From Heptranchias perlo (taxonomy: Eukaryota), in assembly GCF_035084215.1 (NCBI RefSeq), contig NC_090350.1:25978001-26042000 (forward strand): a DNA stretch of 64,000 nt, written 5' to 3'. Every line of letters begins with the position of its first letter. Position 1 is the stretch's first letter. Below, piece after piece: positions 32,204-33,270 of the stretch. The notes beneath the pieces were generated by a model. It ran no database searches. It had not been told where the DNA came from and saw only the letters and a program-made list of their open reading frames with translations. A program made the translations under genes and the position numbers.

Positions 32204-32689
32204 TTATCTGCCCGAACGTACTAATCCAGGTCTTGAAGGCACCATCATCGGCCGGTGAGGCCCCATCATTGGCCCCGGCATCATCGGCATCGGGCCTCCT
32301 ATCGGCGGCCTCATCCCCGGGCCCACCAACATCATCCCAGGAGGCGCTGGGCCCATCATTGGCATCATGGGCGGCCCTCCCATCGGGGGCCCCGGTAGAA
32401 TAGCAGGACGCGGCGGCGGCACCCCGACATTTCCAGGCGGCGGTGGGATTGCGGCCCCGGCGGGAGGTGGGCCAGTTGGCGCCGGGAAAGGAGCGGTGGG
32501 TGGGATTTTACCCTGGCGGAAAGCGGCTGTGGTCTTGTCGATGAGGCTTTGGGCCTGCTCCTCCATCCATTTCTGGTAATAGTCCTTGACGTTCTCTTTG
32601 TGCTTGCGGCCCTCGCAGTGCGTTTTGCGGACGGACGGGGAGTCGTGCGTGAGGTAAGTATCACAGTAATCGCAATAATACTTCGGCAT
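32204..32689 (-). CDS. SNRPC: U1 snRNP protein C (U1-C), intronless, 161 aa
   Basis: [58 protein letters not shown]1-type zinc finger followed by the Pro/Met/Gly-rich tail; uninterrupted ORF from ATG 32689 to TAA 32204. Confidence 0.96.
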
Positions 32690-32699
32690 TTTGTCCACT

Positions 32700-33270
32700 T
32701 AATGGCGGTGCTGCTCTGCGCATGTGCCGGAAGGTCATCAGGTATTTATATATAAAAAGATTGCGTCATTCAACGGAACGTCACGAATCACGTGATGCCT
32801 CGGCGCCTAATAGGCATGCGCATTACCCCGCTTCTGGGAGAGGGACGAGTGTTGTTTGTGACCGTTTTTATCTGTGGCCAAGCAAGTATGGGATATTTTA
32901 AATTTTTTCGGTTATGTTTCTTTTTAAATATTAGCTGTTGTTTTCTATCTTCTCTTTGACGACGGTGATGTGCTGCCGTCGTTGCTGTTGTATGTTGGGC
33001 CATTGCCATATAATTAAGGGATCGTCGCAGCTGTGGATGAAAGTTTGGGTATAATGCGCATGCGTACCTCCAGCTGTTGTATGGGAAATGTAGTTTTTTT
33101 TTAAGAGTACGGGATTTTAGCCACAGAAAATGGAACGGGATGGAAGATATGCAGGACTACAAATCCTGGAGACCACTCCGGGGCCTAGTCACTTAGCAAA
33201 ATCTTGCGACTGCTTTACATCCTCCAATAACTTAACTCATGGATCATTTTTTCATATAACGGGCAAGAAG
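32700..33270. promoter_or_regulatory. Bidirectional CpG-rich promoter, SNRPC(-)/TMEM50A(+)
   Basis: Symmetric TTTATATATAAAAA 32745-32758; NRF1-like GCGCATG at about 32717, 32814, 33055; ETS CCGGAAG 32727; TGCGTCA/ACGTCA CRE-like; TCACGTGA E-box 32788; ZNF143-type ACTACAnnTCC motifs at 33082-33095(-) and about 33155(+); candidate TMEM50A exon-1 donors after 32885 and 33270. Confidence 0.8.

Follow-up and report, generated by a model that had tools for sequence, protein, structure and literature searches.

The gene for the spliceosomal protein U1-C (SNRPC) in the shark Heptranchias perlo has no introns; it very probably arose as a copy of an mRNA and replaced, in the U1 snRNP, a parent that has since decayed. 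The copy lies in the window analysed here, a 64,000-nt stretch of the 3.25-Gb genome G000 (G000:C29:25978001-26042000), and positions below are those of this window unless a contig is named. We read the gene as an orphan retrogene that replaced its parent because it is the sole intact copy found and because a decayed exon 3 persists at the syntenic ancestral site, which lies away from the copy on contig C30 (ILRUN-BLTP3-TAF11). A first-pass annotation of this DNA had proposed a retrogene origin, and the absent introns, the location apart from the parental site and the decayed parental exon there bear it out.

The coding sequence (32204..32689, minus strand; GC3 0.69), delimited from the ORF list, a Pfam match and alignment to the human protein, is a continuous 161-aa frame without intron or frameshift, as first described, and the protein is already named U1-C in public annotation. 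It consists of an N-terminal U1-type zinc finger (Pfam zf-U1 over residues 1-38, E 6e-23) and a Pro/Met-rich tail, as in other U1-C/SNRPC proteins, and the zinc ligands Cys6, Cys9, His24 and His30 are all intact. Comparison with the human protein over residues 1-61 revealed 58/61 identical positions, with F4Y, S26E and Q58R as the only differences, while 159 of 161 residues are shared with a catshark U1-C. All ten residues named as backbone or SmD3 contacts in the available part of PMC4383343 (Thr11, Tyr12, Thr14, His15, Ser19, Arg21, Lys22, His24, Arg28 and Lys29) are kept, and none of the three substitutions is among the RNA-backbone contacts named there. Tyr4 is the state in lamprey, hagfish, acorn worm and insects, so that Phe4 is a bony-vertebrate change. 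Across animals (110 of 129 proteins scorable), site 26 is occupied by S, G, T, Q, N, A, C or E, and site 58 by Q, K, R and others. The earlier suggestion that the three differences alter 5′ splice-site stabilisation is therefore not supported, since residue 4 is ancestral, sites 26 and 58 are variable and no named contact is hit. The acidic residue 26, two positions from Arg28, could tune affinity. Given the 58/61 identity and the kept contact residues, the protein is predicted to enter the U1 snRNP, to stabilise the 5′ splice-site duplex and to act as an ordinary U1-C. Within the ORF, the plus strand at 32651-32663 carries a perfect 5′ splice-site consensus, and the U1-C mRNA consequently contains a stretch of about 10 nt that matches the 5′ end of U1 snRNA. 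The consensus is used by none of the 15 joints listed, of 52, and is probably a coincidence of Asp-Thr-Tyr-Leu codons.

The window holds, in order, an RSRP1-like gene (-), a MAPEG/MGST3-like gene (+), U1-C (-), TMEM50A (+) and an RH/ammonium-transporter gene (-). The first is RS-rich, with a large exon at 3030-4022 and no Pfam hit, and we take it to be RSRP1. The neighbour of U1-C is a TMEM50 gene, as indicated by its UPF0220 domain and by exons matching TMEM50-family proteins; it sits between the RSRP1-like and RH genes and is presumably TMEM50A rather than TMEM50B, judging from synteny and from exon-3 residues. The human gene order around RHCE is kept in chicken, according to the available part of PMC11188259, and the chicken genes within 100 kb named in the accessible portion of PMC9412053 include RSRP1, TMEM50A and RHCE, with SNRPC and MGST3 absent. 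The first annotation likewise placed SNRPC outside the human RSRP1-RHD-TMEM50A-RHCE block. The MAPEG/MGST3-like gene is a multi-exon gene at 15417-~22300 (+), between the RSRP1-like gene and U1-C. Because chicken MGST3 is on chromosome 8 and outside the RSRP1-TMEM50A block as listed (PMC9412053, in the part available), the shark gene may, like U1-C, be present here in this lineage alone, or it may descend from an old paralog that amniotes lost. In the large RSRP1-like exon, an 11-residue Ser/Gly/Arg unit is repeated in tandem about nine times at 3400-3750 (-); the opposite strand there is likewise open and reads as an acidic repeat. A C-rich minisatellite occupies 7400-8780 in the first intron of the same gene, and a G-rich one lies in BLTP3 intron 1 on contig C30. 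LINE fragments are common across the window, and an Rfam search of 29000-39000 returned no match.

Transcription was assessed with four RNA-like contig sets (X5-X8) from one sample of one study, aligned to 29000-39500; their RNA status is a program's guess, the sample is also the possible source of the genome, and the contigs carry neither strand nor true start. Runs X9-X21, which share 5-18% of the window's words, were left out. X5-X8 behave as RNA because the TMEM50A joints are spliced and its intron 1 is uncovered (depth 0 for bin 33212-33562 in 4/4 runs). The U1-C ORF is covered in all four runs, unspliced from ~32716 to ~30600, in line with the earlier expectation that the retrogene is expressed; a single X8 contig spans 30844-32716, and none of the 15 listed joints, of 52, falls inside the U1-C unit. 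On the U1-C side, contigs end at 32713 in X7 and 32716 in X8, which places the start at about 32716-32725, roughly 30 nt from the minus-strand TATA, and leaves a short 5′ UTR (32690..32722, -). The unspliced 3′ UTR (30210..32203, presumably on the minus strand) is defined by contigs and poly(A) signals: the main signal, AATAAA at 30560-30565, lies ~1.65 kb into the UTR and close to where deep contigs of X5 and X7 stop (30606-30633), whereas a minor distal signal, ATTAAA, is found at 30229-30234 and shallow contigs extend to 30217 and 30301. These ends would give an unspliced U1-C mRNA of ~2.2 kb. Non-coding exon 1 of TMEM50A (32822..32885, +) begins at or before 32822 and ends with a donor after 32885; it is joined to 38526 through a GT..AG intron in X7 and X8, with the same donor in X6. 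Exon 2 (38526..38624, +), supported by contig joints and TMEM50 protein matches, carries the start codon and is joined to 39470 in 4/4 runs. The 5′-most contig ends of the two genes, 32716 and 32822, are 105 nt apart and presumably mark divergent starts on opposite strands, close to those that had been proposed.

The two genes are arranged head-to-head around a two-way TATA at 32744-32757, about 55 nt from the U1-C ATG (32689), and a CpG island (32001..33250; CpG o/e 0.86-1.17) covers the ORF and both starts; arrangement, TATA distance and CpG richness are all as first annotated. Judged by contig ends, the pair has divergent ends less than 1 kb apart within a CpG island, as expected of bidirectional genes. 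The putative shared core promoter (32718..32821), whose elements are motif matches only, contains NRF1-type motifs at 32718-32727 and 32813-32821, an ETS motif at 32727, the TATA and an E-box at 32789. All five window matches to the NRF1-type pattern (9-mer, ≤1 mismatch), at three sites, fall within 32718-33065, compared with 1.42 expected window-wide, and five were reached in 3/100 shuffles. Further NRF1-type (33056) and ZNF143-type (33082-33094 and 33156) motifs lie at 33056..33165, inside TMEM50A intron 1; the ZNF143-type motif occurs four times window-wide, a number reached in 6/100 shuffles and not clearly above chance. Of the motif set first attributed to this promoter, the NRF1, ETS and E-box elements do lie between the two starts, but the perfect ZNF143-type site (33082-33094) is in TMEM50A intron 1. 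The CpG-rich beginning of the U1-C 3′ UTR (32000-32150) contains a YY1-type motif at 32065 and a ZNF143 core at 32010, hinting at a second promoter-like element.

We infer that the promoter already served TMEM50A when the copy arrived, so that the copy would have borrowed it and not have brought or built its own. It is less likely, though a reading of some weight, that the same replacement took place with a CpG-island promoter that the copy itself brought or evolved, in which case TMEM50A may owe its non-coding exon 1 to the copy. On the U1-C side, the spacing between TATA and 5′ end is the textbook one, whereas TMEM50A contigs start ~65 nt past the TATA, and ~86% of mammalian retrocopy promoters are neither inherited nor shared (PMC4772013, in the part available). 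The frame upstream of the ATG reads MRRAAPP in the window and MRRREKPPP in the extension of a chimaera model, a weak hint of an old flank. Against this, TMEM50A has long resided in the block and must have had a promoter before the copy inserted, and the same portion of PMC4772013 documents 11 human and 12 mouse retrocopies that recruited a promoter head-to-head. A parental promoter or exon-1 trace for comparison was not found at C30.

Ancestral intron positions were read from alternative gene models among the fetched proteins. Models break before PSVRK in lamprey (P0127), sturgeon, cyprinid, mouse and cattle, read through after DKT in bird, mudskipper and tenrec, and break in codon 3 in hagfish (P0073, P0129) and many bony vertebrates. 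Because models break at the same points in cyclostomes and bony vertebrates, the SNRPC introns are ancestral, and these break points, shared from lamprey and hagfish to mammals, together with the splice sites of the relic described below, fit the earlier statement that vertebrate SNRPC is normally multi-exon. The window ORF runs continuously across the junctions of the cyclostome and bony-vertebrate models and of the relic, which is the intron loss of a retrogene.

Contig C30 carries ILRUN (ATG 12163933, -), BLTP3 (ATG 12187267, +) and TAF11 (12338685-12340366, -), C6orf106 being a synonym of ILRUN and UHRF1BP1 of BLTP3A. The same neighbour order is found in human, where the available part of PMC5704537 gives C6orf106, SNRPC, UHRF1BP1 and TAF11. 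A tblastn search of 200 kb of C30, free of N, gave one linked match at 12171778-12171866(+), starting at P18 and ending at T54. This match marks a decayed SNRPC exon 3 (C30:12171778-12171864, +; 87 of 109 nt, codons 18-54) with an in-frame stop and 22 nt deleted, preceded directly by CAG and followed directly by GTAAG, at the ancestral intron positions. Within the 23.3-kb ILRUN-BLTP3 gap, three queries gave tblastn E values of 2-5e-5, a score reached by 0/19 real or reversed tiles (best 0.06) and 0/100 shuffles (best 0.001). By DNA alignment alone the relic is marginal, with 1/100 shuffled queries scoring as high, and it comes top among 498 tiles only narrowly (54.7 vs 51.2). It is single-copy in the genome. 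Parental exons 1, 2, 4, 5 and 6 and the UTRs gave nothing above shuffles at C30 (21-81/100 reached the plus-strand scores), and pattern searches for the remaining exons there were empty.

Comparison of the relic with the copy revealed 7/46 differences at codon positions 1-2 and 15/23 at position 3 (p 6e-5; 6e-4 with G/C sites only), a bias to which the protein search that located the relic itself contributes. In this small sample, found by protein likeness, the pattern suggests that both genes were long under selection before the parent's death. Residue 26 of the relic is Gly, as in lamprey and hagfish, and one change from Ser. The parent is pseudogenised in the same genome as its intact copy, as in an orphan retrogene. 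Shallow, unspliced RNA-like contigs cover the relic in X6 (L012:700-2032, equal to G000:C30:12170700-12172032; depth 31), where the contig ends at an AATAAA near L012:2028, and in X7 (1606-2006; depth 8.6), and neither run has a spliced joint there. The old transcription unit may survive in this weak RNA as a non-coding remnant. At 80% likeness, neither the RNA-like X9 (organism B) nor X17 (DNA of organism C, ~55% read) gave any cover of the relic, a result that counts neither for nor against its presence in those species.

That a DNA duplicate moved here and then lost its introns by recombination with its own cDNA is improbable. No insertion hallmarks are left at the copy, as such an origin would predict: neither a poly(A) remnant nor a target-site duplication was found there, which weighs against retroposition, although survival of these is not expected in an old copy, and they are not among the retrogene criteria in the available parts of PMC3548309 and PMC4772013. 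A duplicate would require the loss of every intron, and no C30 flanking DNA accompanies the copy, since blastn of 30001-33400 against 200 kb of C30 returned short pieces at the left end and one 27-nt match.

Five genome searches, using the full protein, the first 60 residues at E≤10, the Pfam family, DNA and a bony-fish protein, found the 32204-32689 locus as the only intact U1-C in the 3.25-Gb genome. These searches score the best candidates only, so that their counts are lower bounds, and they missed the parental relic; a live multi-exon parent absent from the assembly or the search, which would make the intronless gene a second paralog, is on that account conceivable, and we consider it very improbable. 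An intact exon 3, with 36 near-identical residues, should score well, and none appeared among the 7/7 and 39/39 scored candidates; the ancestral C30 interval, moreover, has no N and holds a broken exon only. The copy count is thus a single intact, intronless locus with no intact intron-containing copy found, and of the two fates first offered for the gene, replacement of the parent is supported and a second paralog is not. Weak protein hits on C21 and C41 were rejected as LINE reverse-transcriptase frames, and a C14 hit (E 0.0035, five stops) was rejected as a second pseudogene because it scores like LINE noise and lacks the conserved core. Among other zf-U1 family hits, none of the 9/17 inspected is U1-C, all being other matrin-type fingers (ZMAT5-, WBP4- and ZNF385-like) or noise. 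The idea that absence of introns and this location are the ancestral condition, named at the outset among the findings that would overturn a retrogene origin, needs the C30 match to be chance and is largely refuted: the relic's DNA score is marginal, but intron positions are common to cyclostomes and bony vertebrates, and the relic lies at the predicted, syntenic place with both splice sites.

The 90% protein cluster of the window protein comprises seven records from six species: two catsharks, a bamboo shark, two skates and the elephant shark, a chimaera. Residues 1-61 are identical in 6/6 named shark, skate and chimaera members, and full-length identity across the six species is 148-159 of 161 residues, a conservation that points, at the protein level, to purifying selection on U1-C. 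In a tree of 21 rows chosen from 129, chondrichthyans form one clade of eight rows (support 99/98), whose stem measures 0.22 and whose tips are short; the clade includes the window protein and a degenerate electric-ray copy. Glu26 occurs in 9/9 scored chondrichthyan records, compared with Gly26 in the relic. The chondrichthyan U1-C proteins thus appear likely to descend from the copy, arisen on the chondrichthyan stem. The homolog list holds the best 120 of 778 hits and may thus leave out a parent-type protein from another species; among the members listed for ten unnamed or odd U1-C clusters there was no chondrichthyan name. The electric-ray protein P0089 is shortened, substituted and of the Glu26 type, which suggests that the retrogene was itself copied in that lineage and that this second copy decayed. 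We tentatively extend this reading, with rather less than even confidence, to all living cartilaginous fishes: their U1-C would be one stem-born intronless retrogene on the TMEM50A promoter, whose parent was long-lived and lost late, perhaps separately in each lineage, and some chimaeras or rays may therefore carry both genes. If this is true, a whole class of vertebrates has for >400 million years produced a core 5′ splice-site factor from an mRNA that needs no splicing, and the old SNRPC locus may persist as weak non-coding RNA.

In the preferred replacement by an mRNA-derived copy, a LINE enzyme would probably have reverse-transcribed a spliced SNRPC mRNA, and the product would have landed head-to-head with TMEM50A, probably before the divergence of chimaeras from the other cartilaginous fishes. 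The copy would be transcribed in the opposite direction from the same ~105-nt CpG-island core promoter as TMEM50A. It would have changed quickly at first, as the long stem branch suggests, and then become near-invariant, while the parent stayed long under selection alongside it before decaying. Outside mammals, this is a well-supported example of an essential spliceosomal gene being replaced by its retrocopy. Unusually, a fossil of the parent survives with its splice sites, so that birth, coexistence and loss can be dated by comparing the genomes of sharks, rays and chimaeras. The gene also provides a natural test of any regulation that SNRPC might need from its introns, and of the way in which two housekeeping genes share a promoter of ~100 nt. 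The case is also a warning that retrocopy pipelines requiring a living parent, and synteny-based orthology, would miss or mislabel U1-C here. A full-text literature search covering few subscription papers found no report of SNRPC replacement in sharks, and SNRPC is absent from the main text, supplements aside, of two 2026 vertebrate-genome preprints in the parts available.

Among the homologs listed, mammalian 'U1-C-like' entries are presumably processed, mRNA-derived SNRPC copies. Unlike the shark gene, many of these are changed in the N-terminal core and coexist with their parent. The shark protein resembles vertebrate SNRPC/U1-C (PDB 4PJO, 6QX9) in its 58/61 identity, zinc ligands, contact residues and Pro/Met-rich tail. 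Its gene differs in lacking introns, in its chromosome neighbourhood and in encoding Glu26 and Arg58. RNF113A has a spliceosomal role, and with this and other orphan retrogenes (MARS2, TRMT12, CHMP1B) the shark gene shares an intronless housekeeping copy, a dead multi-exon parent, a CpG-island promoter and strong conservation. Orphan retrogenes comprise 25 human cases, one with a parental trace (Ciomborowska 2013, PMC3548309), and 10 mammalian families including RNF113, nine of them with CpG-island promoters (Carelli 2016, PMC4772013), in the available parts of these sources; unlike in 24/25 of the human cases, a parental trace survives here. The shark case further differs from those surveyed in human and other mammals in belonging to a cartilaginous fish, in encoding a constitutive U1 snRNP subunit and in being possibly >400 million years old. 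Like head-to-head retrocopies such as HTR7P1/HEBP1 (PMC4772013, in the part available), the copy is divergent and within 2 kb of a resident gene, whereas its 5′ end lies only ~105 nt from that of TMEM50A, with a single two-way TATA between them. The case belongs to the known class of orphan retrogenes, with no sign of new biochemistry.
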